Shown here: positions 11,806-35,094 of the stretch, one piece after another
Position numbering within the stretch: position 1 is the stretch's first letter
Layout: every line of letters begins with the position of its first letter
Assembly (NCBI GenBank): GCA_048320885.1
Contig: JBLWFJ010000001.1
Coordinates: forward strand, 5,825,697-5,889,696
Length of the DNA stretch: 64,000 nucleotides
DNA from: Nannocystaceae bacterium ST9
GTDB lineage: Bacteria; Myxococcota_A; Polyangia; Nannocystales; Nannocystaceae
Reading direction: 5' to 3'
Notes under the pieces: model-generated
Database searches by the model: none
What the model saw: the letters and a program-made list of their open reading frames with translations, nothing else
What the model was told of the DNA's origin: nothing
Program-made: the position numbers and the translations under genes

Positions 11806-14800
11806 ATGAGCATCTCACCTCCCTCTCCGGTCGATCGCCTGCATCCGGTGCTCTTCGAGCTGTGGCTCCCCAACGGGCCGAACATCACCTGGCAGGTGGT
11901 GCGCCTGCACGGGATCGAGGCCCTCTCGACGCCCTACGAGTTCGTGCTCGATCTGATCACCGACGATCCCTTGGCCAGCTACGAGGAGATGCTCGGGGCT
12001 GACGCCGAGCTGCTGCTCGATCGCAACGGCGTGGTGCGGGTCGTCTACGGGATCATCGACGAGGTCCAGGCGGTGATGTCGGCCGAGTCGCGGGTCGCGA
12101 GCGCGGGGCTGGTCGTGCGCGCGCGGATCGTTCCGGCGTTCAAGCTGCTCGATCAGCAGCTCGACACCCGCTTCTTCGCCGGCCAGACCGTGGTCGAGAT
12201 CGTCCGCGATGTCCTGACCGCCGCGCTCGAGCCCTACCAGCGGACGATCGACGCGAGCGCGAGCGTCAAGGGCACCTACGCCAAGCGCGACTACTGCGTG
12301 CAGTTCCGCGAGACGACCTTCGCGTTCTGCAGCCGGATCCTCGAGGAAGAGGGCATCAGCTACCAGTTCGTCAACGACGACGACGAGCACAAGGAGAAGC
12401 TGGTCCTGATCGACAGCAACGCGGATTACCGCGAGGTCGAGCTGCTGGTCGCCGACGCGATCCCGATCGTGCTCAGCCGGCCCGACGAGCTCGACCGCGA
12501 GTCGATCCAGGCGTTCGACTGGCGAGACGCGCGGACGCCCAACCGCGTGCTGACCCGCGGCTACAACTTCAAGGTCGCGACCACGCCCGACGAGGGCAGC
12601 GCGGAGCGGACCGACCCGCACAACCCCGGCACCCGCGAGCAGTTCCTCGACGACGATCGCCGGCAGATCGTCGACGATCCGATCAACGATCCCGAGGCCC
12701 AGAGCTTCACCGGGGCCGACCTCGCCCAGCGCGTGCCGCTGGCCGAGCGGCTGCTGCAACTGCACACCCAGGAGTCGGCGATCGGCCAGGGCCGGGCCAA
12801 CGCGATCGGGTTCGGGCCCGGCCGGACCTTCACGCTCGGCGAGCACCCGCAGGCCTCGCTCGATCACCACCGCTTCTTGCTGACGCGGGTGGTCCACGAG
12901 GGCGCGATCGGGGGCAGCTCGGGCTCGCCCGAGCGCTCGTACGCCAACCGCTTCGACTGCGTCCCGGTCGAGCACGAGCATCGCCCGGCGCTGCGGACCG
13001 CCAAGCCGCGCGTGTACGGGATCCAGACCGGCGTGGTCGTCGGTCGGGCGCAAGACGAGATCTACACCGATCAATTCGGGCGGATTCGGGTCAAGTTCCA
13101 CCGCGATCGCCACAGCGGCAACGACGAGCAGGCCTCGTGCTGGATCCGCGTCGCCCAGGTCTGGGCCGGCTCGGGGTTCGGCGCGGTCGTGATCCCGCGG
13201 GTCGGCATGGAGGTCGTGGTGTCGTTCGTCGACGGCAACCCCGACTGCCCGCTGGTGACCGGCTGCGTCTACGACAGCCAGAACATGCCGCCCTATCCGC
13301 TGCCGGCGGAGATGACCAAGACCACGTTCAAGACCGCGTCGAGCCCGGGCGGCGAGGGGTTCAACGAGCTGCGCTTCGAGGACGCGCACGGGTCCGAGCA
13401 GGTGTTCATCCATGCCCAGCGGCGGATGGACGTGCGGGTCCGCGGCAGCCTCTACGAGACCTGCGGAGGCAGCCGCGAGGAGCGAGTCGGCTGGGAGCGC
13501 GGCGACGATCAGGGCGGCGACCACAACACGCTGGTCCACAAGGACGTCAACCATCACGTCAAGGAGATCCGCTACACCAAGGTCGAGAAGGAGCAGTACG
13601 AGACGGTCATGCTCGACCTGATCGAGGACTTCCAGACCAAGCACATGGTTCTGGTCGGCGAGGTCAGCCAGCTCAGCGCGCCCAAGGTCGTGGTCGAGGC
13701 CAGCGACAAGATCAGCCACAAGGCCGGGGCGATCCTGGTGACCGGCAGCTCGACGGTCGACATCAAGGGCGGCGGCAAGGTCGCGATCGAGAGCAACAAC
13801 GCGATCGAGATGAAGGTCGGCGGCAGCTTCATCTCGATCACGCCGGGCGGGATCGCGATCCAGGGCGTGTCGGTCCGGATCAACAGCGGCGGCGGGGTCG
13901 GTCCGGCCAGCGAGGGCGAGGCCGCGGTCTCGGTCGAGATGCTCGATCCGCTCGACGCGCTCGGGGCCGACGACGGCCAGATCCATCACGGTGGCGGCGG
14001 GGGTGGGGGAGGCGGCCGGACCCGCACGGGTCGCACGCTCGATCCTCATCACGCGCCGCCGATGCAGCCCCCGCCTCCGCCTCCGCCGGGCCACCCGACG
14101 GTCCAGCCCGACGGGACGCTGCGGCAGTTCCTGACCATCGAGTGGGTCGAGGTCGAGACCTGGTGCAGCGAGCCGGCGACCCTGCGCGGGACCACCCAGG
14201 GCTACACCGACGGCGACACCGAGTCGGCCGACGTCCGCAACACCAGCGACGGCGCGGTCCAGCGCGCGCAGACCCTGACGATCACCAGCAACGCGTACAG
14301 CCAGGCGTTCGACGTGGTCAACCTGCTGCCGCGCCGGGTCGGGGCCAACTTCGAGACCGAGCGGACGCTCGACGCGATCGCGGTCGGCCAGACCACGCCG
14401 ACGGCGATCCGCCTGCGCTTCATCCCGACCCTGACCTCGACCCACTGCACGATCAACAGCTCGCACTTCGACCTCTCGGTGACCAACTACGAGGCGCTGA
14501 TGGGCGGGACGATCAACTACGTGCCGGGGTGGATCCAGTTCATCATTCAGCTCGGCGCGACCGTGCCGGCCGGCACCGGCGGCAACTGTGGGGTCAACTT
14601 CGGGACCCCGACCGCCGGCAGCTTCAGCGGGACCGACTGGCGCTACGCCAAGCGCAGCACGACCACCGGCGGGCTGCTCTACTGGAACGGGACCGCGTGG
14701 ACGGCCGTGCCGGCGACCTGGTCGGATCCGGCCAACGTGCTGCTCTACCCGATCGCGATCTGGATCGAGGGCGGCACCAACCACACGCAGTTCGGGACCA

Positions 14801-15324
14801 CGGCCTGGCCCGAGGCGATCCCGGCCTGGGGCGCGACCGAGACCACGCTCGCGACCACCACGCTGGCGACCTGGACGACCAACATCAACGCGACTTGGAC
14901 TGGCAAGTTCGACCTCAAGCGGGTCGAGTGCCGAAGCACCGACGCGCAGTGCTGCCGCTACAAGACTCGCTGCAGCGTGACCTTCGTGCAGGTCGCGGTG
15001 AAGGGCAGCGGCATCGTGCTCGCGGCCAACAACGCCCGCTCGAACGCCGGCGTCTGGTCGCTCGGCGACACCCGGGCCGGCATGCCGCCGCACGAGTTCG
15101 GCCACCACCTCGGCAACCCCGACGAGTATGCCGGCGGCGTCGGCATCGACGCGAGCGTCAACACCGACGGCGCGACCGCGGGCATCGACCCCAACTCGAT
15201 CATGGGCGCCAACCTGAGCACTGTGAAGCGACGCCACTACAACACGATCTGCAAGCACCTGGCCGCGATGGTCAGCACGCAGTTCGGCCGGACCTACACC
15301 TACAACGCCGTGCCGGTCGTCTGA
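11806..15324 (+). CDS. vgrG: Type VI secretion spike protein VgrG (TssI) with glycine/proline-rich linker and C-terminal HExxH zinc-metallopeptidase-like effector domain (an evolved VgrG)
   Basis: The gp27/gp5 core is unmistakable: RVAQVWAGSGFGAVVIPRVGMEVVVSFVDGNPDCPLVTGCVYDSQNMPPYPLPAEMTKTTFKTASSPGGEGFNELRFEDAHGSEQVFIHAQRRMD. A beta-helix repeat region (ISHKAGAILVTGSSTVDIKGGGKVAIESNNAIEMKVGGSFISITPGGIAIQG) follows, then a G9/P8 linker. The C-terminal ~430 aa extension ends ...GMPPHEFGHHLGNPDEY...IDPNSIMGANL, i.e. HExxHxxGxxD followed by a Met-turn-like SIMG. Confidence 0.9.
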   Translation: MSISPPSPVDRLHPVLFELWLPNGPNITWQVVRLHGIEALSTPYEFVLDLITDDPLASYEEMLGADAELLLDRNGVVRVVYGIIDEVQAVMSAESRVASAGLVVRARIVPAFKLLDQQLDTRFFAGQTVVEIVRDVLTAALEPYQRTIDASASVKGTYAKRDYCVQFRETTFAFCSRILEEEGISYQFVNDDDEHKEKLVLIDSNADYREVELLVADAIPIVLSRPDELDRESIQAFDWRDARTPNRVLTRGYNFKVATTPDEGSAERTDPHNPGTREQFLDDDRRQIVDDPINDPEAQSFTGADLAQRVPLAERLLQLHTQESAIGQGRANAIGFGPGRTFTLGEHPQASLDHHRFLLTRVVHEGAIGGSSGSPERSYANRFDCVPVEHEHRPALRTAKPRVYGIQTGVVVGRAQDEIYTDQFGRIRVKFHRDRHSGNDEQASCWIRVAQVWAGSGFGAVVIPRVGMEVVVSFVDGNPDCPLVTGCVYDSQNMPPYPLPAEMTKTTFKTASSPGGEGFNELRFEDAHGSEQVFIHAQRRMDVRVRGSLYETCGGSREERVGWERGDDQGGDHNTLVHKDVNHHVKEIRYTKVEKEQYETVMLDLIEDFQTKHMVLVGEVSQLSAPKVVVEASDKISHKAGAILVTGSSTVDIKGGGKVAIESNNAIEMKVGGSFISITPGGIAIQGVSVRINSGGGVGPASEGEAAVSVEMLDPLDALGADDGQIHHGGGGGGGGGRTRTGRTLDPHHAPPMQPPPPPPPGHPTVQPDGTLRQFLTIEWVEVETWCSEPATLRGTTQGYTDGDTESADVRNTSDGAVQRAQTLTITSNAYSQAFDVVNLLPRRVGANFETERTLDAIAVGQTTPTAIRLRFIPTLTSTHCTINSSHFDLSVTNYEALMGGTINYVPGWIQFIIQLGATVPAGTGGNCGVNFGTPTAGSFSGTDWRYAKRSTTTGGLLYWNGTAWTAVPATWSDPANVLLYPIAIWIEGGTNHTQFGTTAWPEAIPAWGATETTLATTTLATWTTNINATWTGKFDLKRVECRSTDAQCCRYKTRCSVTFVQVAVKGSGIVLAANNARSNAGVWSLGDTRAGMPPHEFGHHLGNPDEYAGGVGIDASVNTDGATAGIDPNSIMGANLSTVKRRHYNTICKHLAAMVSTQFGRTYTYNAVPVV

Positions 15325-15340: not shown

Positions 15341-16303
15341 ATGAGTGATCCGCAAGACGAAGCCTTTCGGCTCGACTTTCGTGTCCGCGGTGGCGAGCTG
15401 ATGGCCAGCCTGCCCGGACACTTCCAGACCACGATCGAGATCGCCGAGTACGGCACCTGGCTGCGCGTGCGCAGCGACGAGAAGCTCGCGATGCTGGTCT
15501 TGACCCGCCACAACGGCGACCTGGTCGAGCGGCCGGTCGGGCTGTTTCGCATGCGGCTCGACGATCGCCAGCTCGCCGAGCTGCGCGGCGCGGTCGAGTC
15601 GACCGGGTGGACCAAGCTGCCGAGGCCCTCGCGCGGCGACGTCACGGCCAGCCAGCTCTCGATCGACTACCTGCGCGGGGGCTTGCTGATCCGGCGCGAC
15701 TTCAACGCGCGCAGCCGCGAGTTCATCGTCGCGATCTGGCCGCTGATGGAGCAGCTCAACGCGCTGATGGGCACGCTGCTGACTCGGCCGGCCGGGGCGA
15801 TCGCGGTCGCGGTCGCGAGCGAGCCCGATCCCGACGACCCCGGTCGGCGCGTCTCGAAGTTGATCCTCTCGAACCCCGGCAGTTGGCCGGTCGTGCTGAC
15901 CGATCCACGCGTGGCCAAGCCGGCGCACGTCCAGCGCTCGCGCGCGCGGATCCTGGTCGCGCTCGCGCCCAGGGAGACGCCGGGGATGATGGCCGTGCCG
16001 CCGCGCTGGGTGAGCGTCGAGCTGCCTGCGCTGGCCGAGGGCGCGCCCGAGCTCCAGACGTTGCAAGCCGGCGGCAAGCTCGAGATCGCGGTGCCCTGGC
16101 AGGCGCCCGGTCCCGGGGCCTACGTGATGCAGGGCGTGTGGGACGACTACGCCGGACCGATCACGCCGGCCGACGATCATCTGCCGATCATGCCGCTGCG
16201 CGGCGACGACGAGCCGGCGCCGACCGGCGCGGTGTATCCCGTGCGCGGGGCCGCGTTCTCGGTCTACGCTTCGTTCGTGATCGAGCCCCCGAAGCAAAAA
16301 TGA
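15341..16303 (+). CDS. VgrG-island paralogous protein A (no signal peptide); candidate immunity or adaptor protein
   Basis: 320 aa; no recognisable known domain. ~45% identical over ~270 aa to the next ORF (shared blocks WLRVRSDE..LVLTRHNGD.VERPVG.FR, VVLTDPRV, YPVRGAAFS.YASF). Its stop overlaps the next start (ATGA). Confidence 0.6.
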   Translation: MSDPQDEAFRLDFRVRGGELMASLPGHFQTTIEIAEYGTWLRVRSDEKLAMLVLTRHNGDLVERPVGLFRMRLDDRQLAELRGAVESTGWTKLPRPSRGDVTASQLSIDYLRGGLLIRRDFNARSREFIVAIWPLMEQLNALMGTLLTRPAGAIAVAVASEPDPDDPGRRVSKLILSNPGSWPVVLTDPRVAKPAHVQRSRARILVALAPRETPGMMAVPPRWVSVELPALAEGAPELQTLQAGGKLEIAVPWQAPGPGAYVMQGVWDDYAGPITPADDHLPIMPLRGDDEPAPTGAVYPVRGAAFSVYASFVIEPPKQK

Positions 16304-17373
16304 CCGACGCCACCCGACGCGAGTTTCTGCTGGCCGGCCTCGGCGTGGTGGGTGTTTCGATCGGCTGTCGCTCGGAGGAGTCCGAGGCCCCGCCGGGATC
16401 GAGCAAGCGCCGAGCCGAGAGCGAGTCCCCGAGCGATACAGCCGTGAACGATCCAGCCGTGAACGATCCGCCCGCGTCGAACCAACTCGTGCGCTTCCGA
16501 CTCGACTTTCGCTCGGCCGGCGGCCACGTGATGGCCCAGGACGGCACGCAGGCGATCCACGAGTGGACGAGCTGGCTGCGGGTGCGCAGCGACGAGCGAG
16601 TGGCCGAGCTGGTGTTGACCCGGCACAACGGCGACATGGTCGAGCGCCCGGTCGGCCGCTTTCGCCAGACGCTCGACGACGCCGGGCTGCTCGCGCTCCA
16701 GCAGGCGATCGTCGCGACGAAGTGGGCCGAGCTGCCCGAGCCGCAGATCGGCGATCCGACCGCGAACTGGCTGACCTTCGAGTATGTCGCGGGCGAGACG
16801 GTGATCCGTCGCGAGTTCAGCGCGAGCGCCCAGGCGTTCATGACCGCGATCAGTCCCTTGCTGCTGGTGCTCAATGCGGCCATGAGCGCGCCGCTGGCCG
16901 GGCCGCTGGCCGCGATCGCGGTCGTGGCCGAGGCCGCGCGCGCCAAGCCGGGCAAGCCGGTGATCTTGACCATGCGCCTGCGCAACCTCGGGACCGAGCC
17001 GGTGGTGATCACCGATCCTCGCGTGCCGGCGAGCGGCGACGCGGGCCCACGGGCGCGGCTGCTGGTCGCCGCCAAGCCCGGCGAGATGCACATGCCCTCG
17101 TGGACCGCGATCGATCTCGACCCGCTGCCGGCCGGCTCGCCCGAGGTTCGGGTGCTCGAGGCCGGCGGCGAGCTCGAGCTCGCCACGAGCTGGACCCCGA
17201 CGCTGAAGGGCGCCTGCCTGCTGCAAGCGGTCTGGCAGGACTACGCCGGACCGATCCGTGCCGCGCCCGATCAGCTCGGCTTCTTCCCTCTGCCCGAGGC
17301 GGGCCCGAGCGCGGCGGGCCCCTATCCCGTGCGTGGGGCCGCGTTCTCGAGCTACGCGAGCTTCGATGCCTGA
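16300..17373 (+). CDS. VgrG-island paralogous protein B with Tat/lipoprotein-type signal; candidate periplasmic immunity protein
   Basis: ATG at 16300, in frame with the tail of track ORF 15607..17373. N-terminus MTDATRREFLLAGLGVVGVSIGC is a twin-arginine-like signal plus lipobox. A low-complexity linker with AVNDP x2 follows, then the same conserved body as paralog A. Confidence 0.6.
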   Translation: MTDATRREFLLAGLGVVGVSIGCRSEESEAPPGSSKRRAESESPSDTAVNDPAVNDPPASNQLVRFRLDFRSAGGHVMAQDGTQAIHEWTSWLRVRSDERVAELVLTRHNGDMVERPVGRFRQTLDDAGLLALQQAIVATKWAELPEPQIGDPTANWLTFEYVAGETVIRREFSASAQAFMTAISPLLLVLNAAMSAPLAGPLAAIAVVAEAARAKPGKPVILTMRLRNLGTEPVVITDPRVPASGDAGPRARLLVAAKPGEMHMPSWTAIDLDPLPAGSPEVRVLEAGGELELATSWTPTLKGACLLQAVWQDYAGPIRAAPDQLGFFPLPEAGPSAAGPYPVRGAAFSSYASFDA

Positions 17374-17409
17374 TAGGATGCCTGATGGGACGCGTGATAG
17401 GATGATCGC

Positions 17410-17700
17410 GTGAGCTTGGCGGCGAGGGTCACGGACGCGCACACCTGCCCGGCATGGTTTCCGCTGCCGCATGTCGGCGGGGTGATCACCGGGCCCGGGA
17501 TCCCGACCGTGTTGATCGGCAGCATGCCGGCGGCCGTGCAGGGCACGGTCTGCACCTGCGCCTTCGGTCCGCCCAACCCGATCGCGTCGGGCTCGACGAC
17601 CGTGCAGATCGGCAGCATGCCGGCGGCGCGCATGGGCGATCCGACCTCGCACGGCGGCAGCATCGTCGCGGGCTGTCCGACCGTGCTGATCGGTGGTTGA
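17410..17700 (+). CDS. PAAR-domain protein (T6SS spike tip cap), minimal form without toxin extension
   Basis: 96 aa, GTG start. Repeated PAAR motifs ...VLIGSMPAAVQGTVCTC... and ...VQIGSMPAARMGDPTSHGG... Confidence 0.85.
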   Translation: MSLAARVTDAHTCPAWFPLPHVGGVITGPGIPTVLIGSMPAAVQGTVCTCAFGPPNPIASGSTTVQIGSMPAARMGDPTSHGGSIVAGCPTVLIGG

Positions 17701-17703
17701 TCG

Positions 17704-18891
17704 GTGATCGAGCCGAGCGAGCTCGAGCGCCTGCTCGCGCAGGGCCGCGGCGCCGGCTGGCTCGCGGCGCGCGAGCTCGGCGAGCCGGCGATCGAGCTCG
17801 TGCTGCGCTGCGTGATCACGGATCCACGCTGGGATGGCCAGGTCGAGTCGCGCGACGCGTACTACGCCTCGCTCTTGCTCGCCCTTTCCGCGGATCCCCG
17901 GCCGATCGTCGACGCGTTGGTCGGCCGCGATCCCGGAGACGTCGCGCTGGCCCGCAACGTGCTGATCGAGCTGGCCTGGCGTGGCCACGCTGGCGCGCTG
18001 GCGGCCGTGGTCGAGCGCGTGCGTGCGGGCAGCGAGACCGCCGATGATCTGTGGCTGGCCTCCGATCTCGACGGGAGCTTCGCCGCGCGGGTCCACGCGC
18101 TCGCGGGGCGCACGATAGCGACGCATGAAGCCGCGCCCGTGCGCGCGCGCCCGCAGTTGGATCCCGAGCTCGGCATCGCCGAGCTGATCGCGATCGCGAC
18201 CGAGTCGACCGACACGTCGCGTTGGCACGCCGCCCGGCGCTTGGGCGAGCTCGACCAGCTCGACCATGCCGCGCTGATCGACGCCGCCGAGGCATACCTG
18301 CGATCGGAGTGTGGCGTGCCCTCGGGCCAGCGAAACCGACGCGGTGAGCATCTGCGCCGGGTCGGTTGGCTGCGCTACCTCGAGGCGCTCCCGGCCGCGC
18401 GGACGCTCCCGCTCGCCCGCGCGTGGGCCCGCGCCGAGTGGCCGCTGAGCCTCGCGGCCGACAAGCTCTTGGTTCGTCACGCCGAGCCCGAGGATCGCCC
18501 ACTGCTCGAGCAGCTCGGCGGCGAGGCCCTGGCCACGCTCGACCGCTACCGGCTCTGCTCGATGGTCGACGCGCTCGCTCGGCTCGCCGCGCCCGAGTCG
18601 ATCGAATTCCTGATCGCCGTCTACACCACGATCGACTACTCGTACGCCCGCGAGCGAGCCTGCGTCGCCCTGCTCGCGCACGCCGATCATCTCGCGGTCC
18701 GGCCCCTGCTGGTCGAGGCGCTGTGGGACTGCGAGGCCGGCACGCGCGAGGATGCGTGCGGGGCCGTCGATCCGCGCGCGAACGCGGCCCGCCTGCGCGA
18801 GCTCGCCGACGATCCCTGCGAGCGCCCCTCGGTCCGCGAGGCCGCCCGCTCGTGTGGCGCCGAGCCGTGCTGGGGTACAATCTCGCAGTGA
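17704..18891 (+). CDS. HEAT/ARM-like repeat protein of the VgrG-PAAR island; candidate T6SS effector, chaperone or immunity protein
   Basis: GTG start 3 nt after the PAAR stop. 395 aa Ala/Leu/Arg-rich helical repeats (...LLVEALWDCEAGTREDACGAVDPRANAARLRELADDPCERPSVREAARSC...). No catalytic motif recognised. Its stop overlaps the next start (GTGA). Confidence 0.5.
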   Translation: MIEPSELERLLAQGRGAGWLAARELGEPAIELVLRCVITDPRWDGQVESRDAYYASLLLALSADPRPIVDALVGRDPGDVALARNVLIELAWRGHAGALAAVVERVRAGSETADDLWLASDLDGSFAARVHALAGRTIATHEAAPVRARPQLDPELGIAELIAIATESTDTSRWHAARRLGELDQLDHAALIDAAEAYLRSECGVPSGQRNRRGEHLRRVGWLRYLEALPAARTLPLARAWARAEWPLSLAADKLLVRHAEPEDRPLLEQLGGEALATLDRYRLCSMVDALARLAAPESIEFLIAVYTTIDYSYARERACVALLAHADHLAVRPLLVEALWDCEAGTREDACGAVDPRANAARLRELADDPCERPSVREAARSCGAEPCWGTISQ

Positions 18892-20926
18892 GGCACGAGG
18901 CCATCGTCCGCCACATCGAAGCGGCCAGCCCAGAGCAGCTTCGGTTGCTCGCGCGGCTGGCCCTCGAGCTGGCGGGCTACCCGATCCCTCGCACGACCGA
19001 TGGCCCCTACGATGGAGGCATCGATCTGGTGGTCGAGACCGCTGCTGGCCGGGCCTGGCCGATGGCGGTGGCGGTGTCGGTCGAGAAAAACTGGCAGAGC
19101 AAGCTACGCAAGGACGTAGCCAAGGCCCGCCAGGATCCCAGCATCAAGAAGTTCTCTTCATCAGCTCGCGCCGGATCCCCGAGGGCACATTTCGGGCCGT
19201 CCAGCAGGAGCTCGAGGGCAGCTCGGGTCTCTCCGTCGATCGCCTCGATCAACAAGGGATCGCCGATCTCGTGATGGATGGCGAAGGCGCGTTGCCGAGG
19301 TTGCTGGACATTCTCGATCTGCCCACCTCCGACGGCCGAGTGCCCGCGACGCCGGAAGATCGCCGGCGGGATGCCATGTATGCGTATGCCTTTTTCGCGC
19401 CCGAGGTCCACGATTTCCGCAAGGCCATACGGGATCGCAGCCTCATCGTCGCGCTCGCGCAGGCGGGGGGCAGCGCCACCATTGGGGGTCTATGTGTCGA
19501 TGCGGCGCGGCTGCTCGGCATCGACGACAAAGACGCGATGAGCCTCCTGCACGACATCGACCGGCTTCGCCAGGTCGGTCGCATCCAAGGGCCCAATGGC
19601 ACGGTCGTGCTGGCCGCTGAAGAGCGCGAGACGATGGCAGCACTCGCGGCCTTGCGTCGGCGCGAGGAGGCAGCGCTGCGCGACCGACTCGAGGCCCACG
19701 TGGACAGCGCCGGGCTCGAGCCGCGCGAGGATGCGCTCGACGTGCTCTGGCAAGACCTCGGCCCGCTCTTGGCGCGACACATCGGCGCGCCCGAAGCCCT
19801 CGACCACCTTCGCTCGCGCGTGCGACGACTTCGGCGCGAGCTCGAGAGCCATGGCTTGCCCGCGGGTGAGCGCGGCAACCAATTCATCGCCGAAGCCATC
19901 GCGCTGGCGAGCGACTCCGAGCTAGGCAAGTCGTTGGCGACTGGCAGCGTCTATCAGGCGCTCGTGCGGCTCGACCGAAGCGCGCTGCTGCGGGCGCTCG
20001 ATGCTTCGTCGCTGGCGATCGTGGTCGACGCGTCGGTCGCGATACCGATGCTCTGTGCGCTCTTCCACGGAAGCGTGGAGCAGCGCTTCTTTCTCGTCGC
20101 CGAGGAATTTCACCGTCGGTCGCGACACGCAGGTGTCGCGCTGCAATTACCGGATGTCTGGCTGGAAGAGATGGCCTCGCACTTGCTCCGGGCGCCCGAC
20201 TATGAGCCATTCTTGGACGATCTGGATCTGCGTGATTCAGGCAATGCCTATGTTGCCTATTTCGTCGCATCACGGCGGGTCGACTTTGCCGACTACTTGG
20301 CTCAATTTGGATTGACGGAATCGCTCAGGCGTGACGTTCGCCCCGACACTCGACGTTCACTCGAGACCTTCTTGCGTCGTCAGCTCAGCCACTATGGGAT
20401 CGAGGTCGTCGCCACGGGCGGCGTTTCCAAACACCATCTCGAGCGAGCACAGCGAAGCTGGACATGGGCCTGTCACGATCTCGGTATCCTCGATCGCGCG
20501 ACGATCTTGGCCGAGCACGACGTCCGAGTGCTCGCATGGTCGTCTGCGAGTACCGAGCGGGATCCGAGCCGCGCACTCCTGATCGCCACTTGGGATCGCG
20601 CCATTCGTCGCGCGCATCCCGAGACGGACTCAGGTGGCGCGCTCGATCCGCTAGCGATCGGCGAGCTCCTGTCCTTCGTCGCGGGGGATCGTGCGCCCGC
20701 AATGACCGCTCGCTTTGCATCCTCGTGGCTCGGCGAGGCCGAGGCCGAGCGCGGCGCCAGGATCCTCGACGAGCTGGTCCACATCGAGCACGAGCACCTG
20801 TCGGACGCCCAGCTGGTCCGGCAAGCGCGAGCCTTCAAGCAGACCTACGTGCGCGAGCGAGAAGACCAGCCGAGCGCGAAGGCCCTGGGGCGGGCCTGGG
20901 AGACCTTCAAGCGCAAGCCAGCATGA
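18888..20926 (+). pseudogene. Mrr-like PD-(D/E)xK restriction-endonuclease-domain protein with a large C-terminal domain of unknown function; reading frame interrupted by a -1 frameshift near 19140-19150
   Basis: GTG 18888 opens frame 0: VRHEAIVRHIEAASPEQLRLLARLALELAGYPIPRTTDGPYDGGIDLVVETAAGRAWPMAVAVSVEKNWQSKLRKDVAKARQDPSIKK. This is the Mrr_cat-type D..D(GGIDL)..E.K core. The sensible continuation VLFISSRRIPEGTFRAVQQELEGSSGLSVDRLDQQGIADLV... and the remaining ~590 aa are in frame 2 (track ORF 18752..20926). Both frames are open across 18888-19274, so the exact shift site is undetermined. Confidence 0.55.
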
Positions 20927-21032
20927 CTACGGATGGGTGATCGAGCTCGAGCAGCGGCTGGCCGAGCACGTGTGAGGTCTGTCGTCGCGCGCGCCCTCGC
21001 GGGTCCGAGGGGCGTGTCGTAAGTGTCGGCCG

Positions 21033-23342
21033 ATGTTGATCCATCGCTTCGACGAGGTCGCCCGTGCTCGCCCCGACGACGTCGCGCTGGTGTCCTCGCG
21101 CGGCTCGCTGACCTACGCGCAATTGCGTGAGCGCGCGGCCGGCCTGGCTCGCGAGCTGCGGGCGAGGGGAGTCGGCCGCGAGACCCCGGTCGGCGTCGGG
21201 GTGCCGCGCTCGATCGAGTCGATGATCGCGGTGCTCGGCGTGCTGTGGGCCGGCGGGGCCTATGTCCCGATCGACCCGGTCTACCCGCCCGAGCGCCAGC
21301 GATCGATCGCCGCCGACGCCCAGATCGCCGTGCTGGTGATCGCCAGCGAGCTGGCCGGCGCGCCCGCGTGGGCGTCGTCGATCGTCGATCTCTCGCGGCT
21401 TCTCGATTCGACCCCCGGCTCGATCGCCGAGCCAGTCGAGCTGCCCGAGACCGCGCCCGAGGACCTGCTCAACATCCTGTTCACCTCGGGCAGCACCGGC
21501 CGCCCCAAGGGCGTGCTCGGGACCCACGCGGCCATGCTCAATCGGCTCGCGTGGGCCTGGTCGAGCTTCCCCTTCGCCGCCGGCGAGGTGCTCGGTCACC
21601 GCAGCTCGCTCAACTTCGTCGACGCCGGGCCCGAGATGTTCACCGCGCTGCTGCGCGGGGTCCCGACCGCGATCGTGCTGCACGACGAGCAGGCCGACCT
21701 CGGGCGCTTCGTCGCCGCGCTCGAGCAGCATCGCGTCTCGCGGCTGACCGTCGTGCCCTCGATCCTCGCCGCGCTGCTGCGCAGCGTGCCCGAGCTCGCC
21801 GCCCGGCTGGCTGCGCTGCGCCTGTGGATCACCAGCGGCGAAGAGCTCACGCTGCCGCTGCTGCGCCGGTTTCGCGAGGTGTTGCCGGGCGCGACGCTGC
21901 TCAACATCTACGGCTCGACCGAGGTCACCGGCGACGTCACCTGTGCGGTGTTCGAACCCGGCGCGCCGCTGCCGAGCGAGCGCGTGCCGATCGGCAAGCC
22001 GATGGCCGACGCCGAGCTGCTGGTCGTCGATCGCGAGGGCCACGTGCTGCCCGAGGGCGAGACCGGCGAGCTGTTCGCGGCCGGGCCGGTGCTCGCTCGC
22101 GGCTATCACCAGCGCCCGCTCGAGGAGGCGGTTCGCTTTCCTCGTCACCCGACCCGGCCGAGCGAGCGCTGCTTTCGAACCGGCGATCTGGTCCGCCGCG
22201 AGCCCGATGGATCGTTCCTGTTCCTCGGGCGCGTCGACAACCTGGTCAAGATCCTCGGCGTGCGGGTCGAGCTCGAAGAGATCGAGCGTTGCCTGCGAGC
22301 CGCCTGCCCGGCGTTGCGCGACATCGCGGCCGTGCTCGCCGAGGGCGAGCGCCTGGTCGCGTTCGTGACCCCCGAGGACGCCGACGTCGAGGCCCTGCGC
22401 GCGGCGGCGGCTCGACTCTTGCCCGCGGTCATGAACCCGGCCCGCTACCTGCCGATCGCCGCGCTCCCGCTGCTGCCCAACGGCAAGGTCGATCGCGGCG
22501 TGCTGGCGGCCCGCGTTCGGATCACGCCGCGCGACATCCCGGCCGAGCGGCGCCCGCAGACCGCCAGCGAGCGGCGGGTCGCCGCGCTCTGGGCCGGCCT
22601 GCTGCGCCGCGACGACATCGCCCGCGACGACAGCTTCGCCCGGCTCGGCGGCGACTCGCTGACCCTCGCCGAGCTGCTCGCCACGCTCGCCGATCCGCGC
22701 GTCGATCTCGGACTCGCGCGCGACGGCACGCTCGAGCAGATCGGGCTCGCGCTCGACGGCGTGACCACGAGCGAGCGCGCGAACGAGACCGCACTGGCGA
22801 TCACCCTCACGCCGCTCGGCGAGCCGGCGGCCAGCGACGACGAGGTCGTGGCGATGTTCGTCGAGGCCTCGGCCGACCCCGCGCTGTGTGCCAACACCGA
22901 GCTGCCCGGCAACATGGACCGCGAGCGCGCGCGCGACTACTGCCGCAACAGCGACGGCGTGGTCATTCGGCTCGAGGGCGTGCCGGTCGGCGCGGGCCTG
23001 ATCCAGCACCACCCCAACCTCGGCGAGGGTGTCGAGGTCCCGGCCGGCGCGGTCCAGCTCGACGAGTGGCTGCTGCCGCGCTGGCGCGGGCGAGGGATCC
23101 TCGGCGAGGCGGGAGCGTGGCCGCAGCTCTCGGCGTGGATGGCCGAGCGCTTCGACACCGAGGTCAGCGTGGTCTGGGCCGACCATGTCGCGATGCTGAC
23201 GATCCTGCGCGCGCGCGGGTACACCCGGGTCGGTCGGAGCTACTGGAAGAGCAGGCCGGAGGGGGATGGGACCGAGGGGTGGTGCGAGGTGTGGATCTAC
23301 GATCTTCGGCCGCACCGACGTTCGCAGATGATCCTTCGATGA
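21033..23342 (+). CDS. Stand-alone NRPS-like protein: adenylation domain, peptidyl-carrier (thiolation) domain and C-terminal GNAT-type N-acyltransferase-like domain
   Basis: Adenylation core motifs LNILFTSGSTGRPKGV (A3), FRTGDLV (A7), GRVDNLVKILGVRVELEEIE (A8), LPNGKVDR (A10). Carrier motif FARLGGDSLTLAEL. Last ~200 aa GNAT-like (...GVVIRLEGVPVGAGLIQHHP...WRGRGILGEAG...RARGYTRVG). No condensation or thioesterase domain. Confidence 0.75.
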   Translation: MLIHRFDEVARARPDDVALVSSRGSLTYAQLRERAAGLARELRARGVGRETPVGVGVPRSIESMIAVLGVLWAGGAYVPIDPVYPPERQRSIAADAQIAVLVIASELAGAPAWASSIVDLSRLLDSTPGSIAEPVELPETAPEDLLNILFTSGSTGRPKGVLGTHAAMLNRLAWAWSSFPFAAGEVLGHRSSLNFVDAGPEMFTALLRGVPTAIVLHDEQADLGRFVAALEQHRVSRLTVVPSILAALLRSVPELAARLAALRLWITSGEELTLPLLRRFREVLPGATLLNIYGSTEVTGDVTCAVFEPGAPLPSERVPIGKPMADAELLVVDREGHVLPEGETGELFAAGPVLARGYHQRPLEEAVRFPRHPTRPSERCFRTGDLVRREPDGSFLFLGRVDNLVKILGVRVELEEIERCLRAACPALRDIAAVLAEGERLVAFVTPEDADVEALRAAAARLLPAVMNPARYLPIAALPLLPNGKVDRGVLAARVRITPRDIPAERRPQTASERRVAALWAGLLRRDDIARDDSFARLGGDSLTLAELLATLADPRVDLGLARDGTLEQIGLALDGVTTSERANETALAITLTPLGEPAASDDEVVAMFVEASADPALCANTELPGNMDRERARDYCRNSDGVVIRLEGVPVGAGLIQHHPNLGEGVEVPAGAVQLDEWLLPRWRGRGILGEAGAWPQLSAWMAERFDTEVSVVWADHVAMLTILRARGYTRVGRSYWKSRPEGDGTEGWCEVWIYDLRPHRRSQMILR

Positions 23343-24341: not shown

Positions 24342-24417
24342 GGGCGGAATATGGGAATCGAACCCACCACCTCCTGAACCACAATCAGGCGCTCTAACCA
24401 AATGAGCTAATTCCGCC
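24342..24417 (-). tRNA. tRNA-His (anticodon GTG) with encoded G-1
   Basis: Reverse complement folds as G(-1)+GCGGAAT/ATTCCGC acceptor, D-arm GCTC-ATTTGGTTA-GAGC, anticodon arm CCTGA-TTGTGGT-TCAGG (GUG), T-arm GGTGG? region ...GGGTTCGATTCCC, discriminator C. The extra 5' G pairing with C73 is the tRNA-His hallmark. No CCA is encoded. Confidence 0.85.
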
Positions 24418-30235: not shown

Positions 30236-31399
30236 GTGGTAGAAAGTGGCGTGGCCCGAGTCTCGGGGCTTTCTCAGCGGCAGGAGCGCATTTTGATCGG
30301 GCTGTGTCGGCAGCACGCGATCGAAGGCCGACCCGTCGCTTCGGGGACCCTGTGTCGGGCGCTCGGCCTCGACTGCTCGCCGGCCACGATCCGCAGCGAG
30401 CTCGCGGCGCTCGAGCGCTCCGGCTTGGTTCACAAGCCGCACGCCGCGAGCGGGCGGGTGCCGACCAGCGAAGGTTGGCGGATCTACATCGACGCGCTCC
30501 CTCGCCACGCCGCGCGACCCGAGCATCAGCGCCTGCTCGACCTGATCCGCCCGGGCAGCAGCGGCCCCGATCCTCGCCAGGGGCTGCGCTCGACCGCGCG
30601 CGTGCTGTCCGAGCTGGCCGGCTGCGTGGCGATCAACTTCGTCGGCGAGGCCCGCCCCGGCGTGGTTCGAGCGCTCGAGCTGGTGCCCCTGGCCGAGGGT
30701 CGCAGCGGCGGCAAGGACGAAGGCGCGCGCGCGCTCGTGATGCTCGGGCTCGAAGACGGAGCAAGCAGCGTGCGAACGGTCGACATCGATCGCGACGTGC
30801 TCGAGCGCGACCCCCAGCTGCATCGGATCCAGAGCCTGCTGCGCGAGCTGACCTGCGGGCGCAGCCTCGAGCAGGCCCGCGAGCAGCTGCGCGAGTTGCT
30901 CGGCGCGCAGGAGGCCCGCGTCGATCACTACCTCGCCGAGGCCCTGCGGATCGGGCTGCTGCTCTGCGTGGCGTCGTTCGATCCGCTGTGGATGCAGGTC
31001 GCGGGGCAGGGCGCGCTCGCTCGCGACGTCGGGCGCGAAGGAGCGTCGGGTGATCCGACGACCCTGGGCGGGCTGCTCGAGCTGCTCGACGACTACCAGC
31101 GGCTGGCCGAGGTGCTCTGCCAGCTCTTGCCCGAGCCCGACGACGCCCCGCAGGCCGCGGTCCACCTCGATCTGACCGGGACCCGGGCCGAGCTCGCGAG
31201 CGCGCCCGCGTCGGGGTTGCTCGGATCGACCAGCGGCGGGTTGACGCTGGTCGGATGCCGCCTACGTTGGCCGGCGGTGCGCGACCCCAACATGCGGACG
31301 ACCGGCGCCGTGGCGCTGCTCGGCAGCCCGCGGATGGATTGGGAGGCCGTGATTCCTCTGGTAGAGTACGCCGCGCGAGCGATGCTCGCCCGCGGCTGA
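30236..31399 (+). CDS. hrcA: Heat-inducible transcription repressor HrcA
   Basis: N-terminal wHTH (LSQRQERILIGLCRQHAIEGRPVASGTLCRALGLDCSPATIRSELAALERSGLVHKPHAASGRVPTSEGWRIY), length and position upstream of grpE-dnaK-dnaJ. Confidence 0.8.
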   Translation: MVESGVARVSGLSQRQERILIGLCRQHAIEGRPVASGTLCRALGLDCSPATIRSELAALERSGLVHKPHAASGRVPTSEGWRIYIDALPRHAARPEHQRLLDLIRPGSSGPDPRQGLRSTARVLSELAGCVAINFVGEARPGVVRALELVPLAEGRSGGKDEGARALVMLGLEDGASSVRTVDIDRDVLERDPQLHRIQSLLRELTCGRSLEQAREQLRELLGAQEARVDHYLAEALRIGLLLCVASFDPLWMQVAGQGALARDVGREGASGDPTTLGGLLELLDDYQRLAEVLCQLLPEPDDAPQAAVHLDLTGTRAELASAPASGLLGSTSGGLTLVGCRLRWPAVRDPNMRTTGAVALLGSPRMDWEAVIPLVEYAARAMLARG

Positions 31400-31485
31400 G
31401 TCAGCCCGAGTGGGCCCGCCTGGGCCAGCGGTCGCGCGCAGATCGACGATCGATCGGCGAGCAGCATCAGGAGCCCGACGACTTC

Positions 31486-32157
31486 ATGAGCGGAGACCAG
31501 ACCACGAACGACCCCAAGCCCGCCGACGACGTGCTCGCGCAGGCCATGCGCGACGCGGAGCAAGCGGTCGAGCGGGTCCGAGCCGGGCGCGACGGCGAAG
31601 CCGAAGAGTCCGACATCGACATCACCGACGACCCCGACGCGGCCGATCTCGTCGCCGCGCTCGCGGCGGATCTCGCCGCCGCCAAGGCCGACATCGAGGC
31701 CATGCGCGACAAGTGGATGCGCTCGCTGGCCGACCTCGAGAACTTCAAGAAGCGGACCCGCCGAGAGATCGACGAGGCCGTCCATCGGGCGCTCGGCAAC
31801 ATGCTGAGCGACTTCCTGCCGGTCGGCGACAACCTCGAGCGCGCGCTCGCGGCCATGCCGGCCAACACCGAGCCGCAGCTGGCCAAGGGGCTCGAGATGG
31901 TCCGCGGCGAGTTCTTCTCGGCGCTCGGCCGGCACGGGATCAAGCCGATCAACTCGGTCGGCATGGTCTTCGATCCCAACCTCCACGACGCGCTCCAGCA
32001 GGTCGACACCCCCGACTTCGCGCCCGGCGTGGTCGTGATGGAGTACGAGAAGGGCTACCTGCGAGGCGAGCGGCTGCTGCGGGCGGCGCGAGTGATCGTC
32101 GCGGGTCCCGGCTCGACCGGCACGCCGCCCGACTCGAACCCGGGCGAGGCCAACTGA
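31486..32157 (+). CDS. grpE: Nucleotide exchange factor GrpE
   Basis: ATG 31486 ([11 protein letters not shown]), internal to track ORF 31255..32157. ...[19 protein letters not shown]... coiled coil and C-terminal beta domain [23 protein letters not shown]. Confidence 0.85.
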
Positions 32158-32170
32158 TCGGAGCGCGCTG

Positions 32171-33994
<1,824 letters not shown>

Positions 33995-33996
33995 CC

Positions 33997-35094
33997 ATGG
34001 CTCGCCAGGACTACTACGCGATCCTGGGCGTCGGCCGCGACGCCGACGAGGCCGACATCAAGAAGGCCTATCGGCGCGTCGCGCTCGAGAGCCACCCCGA
34101 TCGCTTCCCCGACGACGAAGACGCCCACGAGCGGTTTCGCCAGGCGTCCGAAGCCTACGAGGTGCTCTCGGATCCCGGCAAGCGGGCCCGCTACGACGCG
34201 ACCCGGCTGATCCCCGAGAGCCTCGATCTCACTCGTCCGCCCGACGCCCAGACCGCCCGCGATCTGTTCGGCAACCTGTTCGGCGACGTGTTCGGCAGCC
34301 GTCGACGCGAGCGGCGACAGGGCCGGGACATTCGCTACACGCTCACCGTCGACCTCGCCGACGTCGTGCTCGGCTCGCAGCACACCATCCACTTCGAGGC
34401 CCGCGGCGCCTGCGAGACCTGCAAGGGCAAGGGCGCCGAGCCGGGTGGGCGCGAGCCGGTCGACTGCCCCAATTGCGAGGGCACCGGCGAGGTCAAGACC
34501 GGCGGGATCTTTAGTCGGCGCAGCCGCTGCGGTCGCTGCGACGGGCTCGGGCTGATCCAACGCGACCCCTGCAAGACCTGCCGCGGCCGCGGGGTGCTCA
34601 AGGCCGAGCGCAGCTTCGACGTTCGCCTGCCGCCGGGCACCGAGGCCGGGACCGAGAAGGTCCTGCGTGGCCAGGGCGAGCCGGGCCGCTTCGACGGTGA
34701 GCCAGGCAACCTGCGGATCACCGTGAACGTCCGCCCGCACCCCTGGCTGACCCGCGATCAGCTCAACTTGGTCGCGAGCGTGCCGATCAGCATCACCCGC
34801 GCGGCGCTGGGCGGAAAGGTCCCGGTCCCGACGATCGATGGTTGGGTCGACATGGAGGTCCCGGCCGGGGTCGCGTCGGGGGCCAAGCTTCGCTTGCGCG
34901 GCAAGGGTGTGCCCGACTCTCGAGGCAGCCGCGGCGACCAGATCGTCGAGCTGAGGATCGAGACCCCCAGCGCGCTCGAAGGCACGCGGACCCGCGAATT
35001 GCTGCTGGAGCTCGAGCGTACGAGCGAGCGCGAGCCGGTCTTGCCCAAGCGCCAGGCCGTCTTGGACGCCCAGGCGGCCGCCAAGAAGGCTTGA
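33997..35094 (+). CDS. dnaJ: Molecular chaperone DnaJ (type I: J domain, G/F region, CxxCxGxG zinc fingers, C-terminal domain)
   Basis: ATG 33997, 2 nt after the dnaK stop. DYYAILGV...HPD (HPD motif); four CxxCxG repeats ([32 protein letters not shown]). Confidence 0.9.

Follow-up and report, generated by a model that had tools for sequence, protein, structure and literature searches.

A frameshifted stand-alone nuclease gene probably inserted into the 3' end of a HEAT/ARM-repeat gene beside a VgrG-PAAR cluster in Nannocystaceae bacterium ST9

The stretch of DNA analysed here (the window) comprises 64,000 nucleotides of Nannocystaceae bacterium ST9, with a G+C content of about 70%, and carries a gene, called gene B below, that directly follows a HEAT/ARM-repeat gene (ORF A) at the end of a VgrG-PAAR cluster. 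A preliminary description of this DNA had considered the two genes as a type VI secretion system (T6SS) nuclease effector and its immunity protein, and had noted a break in the reading frame of gene B. Comparison with relatives points to a different history, in which gene B would be a ~2.1-kb insertion into the 3' end of ORF A that made neighbours of two unrelated genes, and which is now frameshifted; we place the probability of this reading at about 0.75.

Gene content of the locus

The genes and gene parts at the locus are listed below; L013 and L014 are loci of two relatives, and GC3 is the G+C content of third codon positions.

11806-15324, plus strand: VgrG gene (codon-position GC and frame hidden Markov model, HMM)
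15341-16303, plus strand: g320, a 320-aa gene (same evidence)
about 16300-17373, plus strand: g352, a ~352-aa paralog of g320 (same evidence)
17410-17700, plus strand: PAAR gene (PF05488, E 4.9e-22; 92% and 72% identity to the PAAR of L013 and L014, respectively)
17704-18891, plus strand: ORF A (GenBank ACNOYE_24325), a HEAT/ARM-repeat gene of 395 aa with a GTG start (GC3 0.89, homologs, fold)
18888-19151, plus strand: 5' part of gene B, residues 1-88, frame 0, with the core of a Mrr/FokI/MspJI-fold domain (D38, D42, D46, E66, K72, D76; Mrr_cat E 0.006)
19151-19152, plus strand: frameshift site, AAG-TTC where orthologs encode K-K-V, with one G missing (AAG GTT)
19152-19274, plus strand: out-of-frame tail of the truncated N-terminal product (ACNOYE_24330, 128 aa), ending in a TGA (19272-19274) that shares a base with the ATG at 19274
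19152-20926, plus strand: 3' part of gene B, residues 89-679, frame 2, with the end of the nuclease-fold domain, winged helices, a helical linker, a PIN-like domain and a helical C-terminus
21033-23342, plus strand: AMP-binding/PP-binding (AMP-ligase) gene (PF00501, E 3.7e-75; 73% identity to the L013 and L014 orthologs)

What the preliminary description said of the sequence itself, on the overlap and on the reading frame, checks out. ORF A is a 395-aa reading frame directly behind the PAAR gene, starting 4 nt after it. The stop of ORF A (TGA, 18889-18891) shares bases with a GTG at 18888, from which frame 0 reads VRHEAIVRHIE...YDGGIDLVVE...SVEKNW...SIKK. This GTG is the true start of gene B, as the orthologs begin at the same residue with M[KRQ]HE. 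In GenBank the gene appears as two separate hypothetical proteins, ACNOYE_24330 (128 aa) and ACNOYE_24335 (550 aa, 19274-20926). The public annotation of 18888-20926 carries no pseudogene or frameshift flag. ORF A, too, is annotated there as a hypothetical protein.

Insertion of gene B into ORF A

The syntenic block at this locus is OmpA, QueF, (VgrG, g320, g352, PAAR), ORF A and AMP-ligase. L013 and L014 keep the order VgrG-g320-(g352)-PAAR-ORF A-AMP-ligase at protein identities of 56-92%, with flanking proteins 66-92% identical to those of the window; the L013 match to g352 (44%) is to its paralog g320. Both loci are empty sites, in which the stop of ORF A is followed by 57 nt and the ATG of the AMP-ligase gene, with no gene B. 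Five features describe the filled site of ST9:

about 18850-20955, plus strand: putative inserted single-gene cassette of ~2.1 kb, boundaries +/- 6 nt, comprising gene B, ~38 nt that belong to the cassette 5' of it and ~30 nt of 3' DNA
18850-18891, plus strand: new C-terminal tail of ORF A, SCGAEPCWGTISQ and stop, encoded by the 5' end of the cassette and diverging from homologs
18853-18881, plus strand: candidate promoter of the cassette, TGTGGC, 17 nt and the -10 hexamer TACAAT, 6 nt upstream of the GTG
20958-20975, plus strand: stranded ancestral 3' end of ORF A, CTG GCC GAG CAC GTG TGA (LAEHV and stop), matching ...ALAGPGV or ...ALADEGV plus stop in L013/L014
20976-21032, plus strand: conserved intergenic DNA 5' of the AMP-ligase gene, contiguous with the ORF A stop in relatives

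At the left edge, ORF A follows its homologs as far as ...SVREAAR (18849) and then departs from the tail consensus ...VRxAARxAL.... The tail that replaces it has 13 residues and is unique to the window copy, and residues 388-395 are disordered in the AF2 model. At the right edge, the DNA behind the gene B stop (20924-20926) reads ...CTGGCCGAGCACGTGTGA GGTCTGTCGTCGCGC..., which equals the last ORF A codons of the relatives (...LA...V and stop), the stop and the intergenic region. An 18-mer that spans the ancestral stop (GTGTGAGGTCTGTCGTCG) has a single occurrence in the window (20970-20987), and blastn aligned 20970-21017 to L013 over 48 nt at 87.5% identity and 20969-20987 to L014 over 19 identical nt. 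Because the old tail, stop and intergenic DNA lie 3' of gene B (20958-21032), the cassette appears to have landed within the last ~8 codons of ORF A. Deletion of gene B from the relatives was ruled out, as in the window ORF A has a new tail and its ancestral tail and stop lie stranded downstream.

ORF A now ends at the first in-frame stop of the insert, which is the TGA within the GTGA of gene B, so the overlap of the two genes would be a by-product of the insertion. The proposal that the GTGA marks translational coupling therefore stands as a description of the sequence; as a meaningful link between the genes it falls, the overlap being an accident of insertion. A (A/G)TGA is also found at the start of the closest ortholog, in a different context.

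The upstream DNA of the cassette may include signals for expression. A TAnnnT motif lies 6-10 nt before the start in five of eight ortholog loci and also in the window (TACAAT plus 6 nt), which suggests, as a lead only, that the cassette carries its own promoter and that its transcript would be leaderless or have a very short leader.

Scans for further examples of the site added no second case. The junction 18-mer gave 13 matches in metagenome contigs, all of them unrelated chance matches, with no further empty or filled sites and no second ST9 allele. A scan of genome contigs recovered gene B at three loci only (a Nannocystaceae metagenome-assembled genome, an uncultured proteobacterium and Algoriphagus), and none of the scans made turned up another genome in which gene B occupies the ORF A site. 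P0239, a cluster representative considered as a possible contig of a close relative, proved to be an unrelated 42-aa peptide.

The intergenic DNA at 20976-21032 (9165-9221 in L013 and 6442-6498 in L014), which reads GGTCTGTCGTCG...CGTGTYGTARGT..., is unusually conserved though the proteins are only 56-73% identical. Its conservation suggests a regulatory element 5' of the AMP-ligase gene.

Reading frame of gene B

Within gene B the coding phase switches from 0 to 2 at 19151/19152; the codon-position HMM places the switch at 19154. The preliminary description had put it at 19140-19150, so the switch is real and its exact place a few bases further on. As also described there, both frames are open over the junction (frame 0 to 19272, frame 2 from 18611), and the domain of about 590 residues that follows the shift is 591 aa long with no Pfam match. 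The repair used here re-reads G19151, which is equivalent to adding one G (AAG-GTT), and gives a protein of 679 aa.

A search with the repaired protein returned 63 homologs, the remotest of which (P0063) is 37% identical. The window's own 550-aa product set apart, most of them run uninterrupted over 676-707 aa and align with 99-100% of the query, at identities of 44-79%. The junction aligns without a gap (QDPSIKKVLFISSRRIPEG in the repaired window protein, QDPRIKKVLYISSRRIPEG in P0002), and the ortholog DNA runs atc aag aaa gtg ctc through it in one frame. The refuting case named beforehand, of orthologs with two separate genes here, is not borne out, as about 60 orthologs are one continuous gene. 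ACNOYE_24330 and ACNOYE_24335 are thus the two halves of one gene.

The remainder of the gene looks sound. The window copy keeps every family-invariant residue and has no further stop or frameshift outside the one shift, and because no other decay is visible, the lesion is either very recent or a base-calling error. We consider gene B of ST9 to be probably freshly inactivated. Among the three options first put forward for this gene (a decaying effector, an inactivated defence gene or a sequencing indel), an inactivated defence-type gene fits best, as a single-base deletion breaks a gene that about 60 orthologs keep whole and whose distant relatives are found on mobile elements; whether it serves in defence is a separate matter, taken up below.

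In the order of events that we propose, a cassette with gene B would have inserted into the last ~8 codons of ORF A; ORF A would have gained its 13-residue tail while the old tail, stop and intergenic DNA were stranded 2.1 kb downstream; and one G would have been lost at 19151/19152, in the N-terminal domain, leaving reading frames of 128 and 550 aa.

Alternative readings

The strongest competitor is a sequencing or assembly indel, by which the gene would be intact in the living strain, with one G dropped from the sequence and the two GenBank reading frames artefactual. We hold this to be a serious possibility, if the less likely one. Apart from the shift gene B looks fully functional, with its invariant residues kept and no more stops, and it carries only two private substitutions at otherwise invariant columns, within the range of one to four seen in fourteen intact orthologs (P0063 has 40); the 6.98-Mb contig also suggests a long-read assembly. 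On the other side, the shift is the sole unexplained frame switch that the codon-position HMM found in the 64-kb window, which indicates that the assembly is not generally indel-ridden, and the missing base falls in a GG dinucleotide rather than a long homopolymer. A literature search on strain ST9 found no paper on its sequencing.

A second alternative accepts the shift as real and supposes that a 550-aa product with winged helices and PIN domain is still made from the ATG at 19274 and acts without the N-terminal domain. The TGATG overlap (TGA 19272-19274, ATG 19274-19276) could allow termination-reinitiation, the ATG encodes the naturally conserved Met130, the entire PIN domain is present with its acidic residues intact, and PGAP calls the 550-aa reading frame. 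This functional split is nevertheless unlikely, as every ortholog has Met130 as an ordinary residue within its chain, which makes chance the simplest account of the overlap, and the N-terminal domain is kept in most of the best 150 profile matches, the shorter of which look like fragments.

Much less probable still is the model in which gene B is a T6SS effector delivered via the VgrG/PAAR spike and ORF A its coupled immunity protein. It draws on the adjacency to PAAR and VgrG, on the GTGA overlap, and on the faster evolution of ORF A (56-59% identity to L013 and L014) compared with its neighbours (72-92%; VgrG 84-87%, PAAR 72-92%, g320 73-74%, AMP-ligase 73%), as is often seen in immunity and effector genes. 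Gene B was, by the evidence above, inserted into ORF A, and the same slot is empty in L013 and L014. In a tblastn comparison of 23 loci, the 18 gene B loci (about 11 distinct contexts) never held ORF A, PAAR or VgrG, with no VgrG or PAAR within +/- 10 kb, and the five ORF A loci (four distinct) never held gene B. The reading frame upstream of gene B in the closest ortholog locus (L009) was tested as a possible ORF A homolog and is unrelated. Homologs of ORF A occur without T6SS genes (L015 8001-9146; L021 3652-4821) and in Actinobacteria. No trafficking domain (PAAR, MIX, Rhs or other) is present in gene B, whose own upstream region travels with it. ORF A and gene B thus appear to have no partnership, and the annotation should be corrected accordingly: gene B is not to be counted as a T6SS effector, nor ORF A as its immunity protein.

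Programmed -1 ribosomal frameshifting that restores the full-length protein, which the -1 direction and the position at AAG AAG might recall (lysine codons can be slippery in some bacteria), was rejected as scarcely credible, since C AAG AAG T is not an X XXY YYZ heptamer, the shift is not conserved (about 60 orthologs need none and read AAG/AAA GTx straight through), and no frameshift element was found in the Rfam scan.

Domains and family of gene B

Proteins of the gene B family, ~680 aa long, begin with a Mrr/FokI/MspJI-fold domain, continue with winged-helix modules and carry a PIN-like nuclease domain in their C-terminal part. In addition to the N-terminal core listed above, two regions of the window gene were placed:

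about 19400-19615, plus strand: winged-helix modules, in the frame-2 part
about 20000-20685, plus strand: PIN-like domain, with D381, E428, D545 and D570

The N-terminal domain has the alpha-beta-beta-beta-alpha-beta fold of restriction endonucleases. In Pfam, gene B matches Mrr_cat (PF04471) only, and below the cut-off of 21 (17.2 bits for the N-terminal fragment, 14.5 bits for the repaired protein); the same model matches 11 of 16 orthologs at E <= 0.1, with a best E of 2.3e-4. Conservation was evaluated in 110 diverse members with a median identity of 28% to the window protein, where the conserved residues of this domain are D38, D42, D46, W69, K72 and D76. The canonical D...(D/E/Q)-x-K motif was not found. 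In its place there is an invariant D46, Q62-x-S/T64-x-E/Q66 and an invariant K72; Q62 is present in 97 of the 110 members and is Ala in the Nannocystaceae clade, including the window copy. The preliminary description had seen a clear Mrr_cat core here, of the form D..D..E.K. A non-canonical active site is possible, and the domain may cut nucleic acid or only bind it.

The C-terminal domain has a PIN fold, with VapC15 and VapC2 as matches at 9.8 and many further VapCs at 9 or above; Pfam PIN models gave no match to gene B at E <= 1. Its acidic residues are conserved in nearly all of the 110 members (D381 94%, E428 99%, D545 100%, D570 98%), and the window copy has each of them. As the most conserved feature, the PIN site is the presumptive catalytic centre of the protein. 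A working model would have the N-terminal domain and winged helices recognise nucleic acid and the PIN site cleave it.

The family is found fairly widely in metagenomes. When a profile was run against 1.84 billion representative proteins, it recovered 522 clusters (at 50% identity) with E <= 1e-3, of which 206 reach E <= 1e-30, and the best 150 matches are mostly about 700 aa and matched over their full length. NCBIfam, PADLOC v2.0.0 (5027 models) and PHROGs contained no match for gene B or for diverse relatives, PADLOC gave none for the window protein or six diverse family members at E <= 0.1-1, and a sequence-profile search of the PDB with gene B returned nothing relevant. General comparative-genomics papers found in a literature search on Mrr-like and PIN defence proteins do not name the family in their titles or abstracts. 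What emerges is an uncharacterised nuclease family with an unusual mix of domains, in which a Mrr/MspJI fold with a non-canonical motif is joined to winged-helix modules and to a PIN domain whose active site is conserved.

Genomic contexts and mobility

Orthologs at 50-79% identity have wholly different neighbours (kinases, FadB/thiolase, peptidases, ceramidase). Where copies in different contexts were compared (window with L009, L010 with L011), homology covers the coding sequence plus about 40-50 nt upstream and ends at the stop codon. Composition also sets the gene apart, with a GC3 of 0.68-0.84 against 0.85-0.97 in its immediate neighbours at six of seven loci; in the window the values are 0.77-0.84 for gene B and 0.89-0.95 for the neighbours. 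The G+C content of the window dips to 0.60 at 20000-20499, in the PIN-coding part of gene B, which is the lowest value of the 8-28 kb region and is consistent with a foreign origin of the cassette.

The relatives found on mobile elements are distant (22-29% identity) and sit on several kinds of element. One lies at the margin of a P2-like prophage of 63% GC, within an islet of 40% GC (L020), one in a Zot-encoding inovirus (L019), and one in Algoriphagus (L018) between Toprim primase and RadC genes, in a region resembling an integrative and conjugative element (ICE). A fourth, on a 49-kb plasmid of Chromobacterium violaceum (L023, NZ_CP069443.1, 1431-7941), is a 646-aa homolog annotated as hypothetical, which forms the cargo gene behind TniA-TniB-TniQ-resolvase. 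This Tn5053/Tn402-like transposon is inserted beside phage tail genes on a phage-plasmid-like replicon.

Two further loci (L005 and L006) share an identical gene B protein (P0037) and the same upstream genes. Their synteny breaks from about 12755, some 700 nt 3' of gene B and after a shared 104-aa reading frame. In this lineage gene B is at a breakpoint or variable region.

These contexts lead us to regard the gene B family as horizontally mobile, stand-alone nucleases, for which defence or competition between mobile elements would be the likeliest uses. A role in defence, or as a selfish nuclease, is suggested by the architecture and by the association with mobile elements, tentatively and with the odds slightly against it. 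The more specific proposal, of an undescribed single-protein genome-conflict system acting as an anti-phage or anti-plasmid nuclease, or as a selfish, recombinase-less cassette of promoter plus reading frame, is doubtful at present. Should an intact member turn out to act in defence or as a selfish nuclease, the family would represent a new single-gene system. At the ST9 locus such a gene has apparently entered a chromosome as little more than a promoter and a reading frame, and the empty and the filled site can be told apart clearly. There is nothing unusual in the frameshift, and the modest interest that remains lies in the uncharacterised family and in this clean pair of sites.

Several observations weigh against the reading of gene B as an inserted, freshly inactivated nuclease cassette. 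No recombinase, transposase/integrase, attC-like site, terminal (inverted) repeats or target-site duplication marks the cassette, whose ends showed only chance-level repeats. A consensus promoter and terminator scan of 17300-21300 yielded no promoters and one terminator at chance level. The deletion may be an assembly error, a 2-nt G run being atypical of homopolymer error yet compatible with one. The canonical (D/E/Q)xK lysine is absent, making catalysis by the N-terminal domain doubtful as far as sequence can tell. The neighbours of gene B in Nannocystaceae are ordinary chromosomal genes and not defence islands, and the proposed defence role is drawn from context only, with no PADLOC, PHROGs or NCBIfam model to match it.

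Comparison with known systems

Gene B differs in several ways from the Type IV/IIS nucleases of the Mrr/FokI/MspJI/AspBHI class (PF04471): it scores under the gathering threshold of the family; Ser/Thr takes the place of the (D/E/Q)xK lysine, with the invariant K72 on the next helix; its domain stands at the N-terminus, joined to winged-helix and PIN modules; and it lacks an SRA-like or other reader of modified bases as well as a methyltransferase partner. The PIN toxins of VapBC systems are likewise distinct, since VapC is a protein of ~130 aa whereas the PIN domain of gene B has about 230 residues, with long helical insertions, within a protein of 680 aa, and no VapB-like antitoxin or other conserved neighbour is present in the about 11 distinct gene B contexts.

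Gene B resembles the single-gene anti-phage nucleases on prophages, transposons and ICEs in being solitary at most loci examined, in its low GC3, and in having distant members on mobile elements; it differs in having no PADLOC or PHROGs match, and its Nannocystaceae copies sit among ordinary genes. T6SS cargo pairs are similar in position only, as gene B follows VgrG, PAAR and a helical-repeat gene, but the linkage is unique to ST9 and apparently made by insertion, and there is no trafficking domain, conserved immunity gene or, in the ortholog loci examined, T6SS genes. Free-standing homing-endonuclease and other selfish nuclease genes also occur alone in varied places, with a short upstream region and no transposase, integrase or terminal repeats, as gene B does; here, however, the insertion sites have no common target and there is no homing-endonuclease family motif. 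That gene B might mobilise itself is pure speculation.

ORF A and the surrounding genes

The coding status of ORF A is confirmed by codon-position GC (GC3 0.89), and 27 homologs were found. Its description as HEAT/ARM-like is supported by the predicted fold and weakly by Pfam. The AF2 model (pLDDT 90.8, pTM 0.87) is an all-alpha solenoid of 24 helices, for which the top Foldseek matches are alphaRep (HEAT-derived), beta-catenin ARM and CpcE/F at probabilities of 0.95-1.0. Pfam HEAT_2 (PF13646) matches ORF A at E 0.019 (15.7 bits, cut-off 27.7) and was found in 9 of 17 homologs, with a best E of 2.3e-6.

Judged by its divergence from L013 and L014, ORF A appears to be a fast-evolving gene, as expected under conflict-type selection. 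It is closely packed behind PAAR in three genomes, and packing and fast evolution together are compatible with a T6SS-related role that does not involve gene B. In relatives it is conserved after PAAR or QueF, and the two homologs noted above (L015, L021) are among those that have no VgrG or PAAR beside them. In L015 the homolog lies directly 3' of QueF, and from this adjacency the VgrG-PAAR cassette itself looks inserted or deleted between QueF and ORF A. L013 has a second VgrG a few kb downstream.

The tandem paralogs g320 and g352 sit between VgrG and PAAR and have no match in Pfam or NCBIfam. L014 has both, and g352 is 44% identical to the single g320 of L013. Possibly they encode adaptors or effectors associated with the spike, of a family not assigned.

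The Rfam scan covered 17300-21300 and gave no match. Downstream, at 30236-35091, are an hrcA-grpE-dnaK-dnaJ heat-shock operon and Ser/Thr kinase genes, and with such genes alongside it the VgrG-PAAR cluster appears as an orphan spike island in ordinary chromosome, with no T6SS core locus within the window. The nearest tRNA gene, for His, is at 24342-24416 on the minus strand, away from the insertion.

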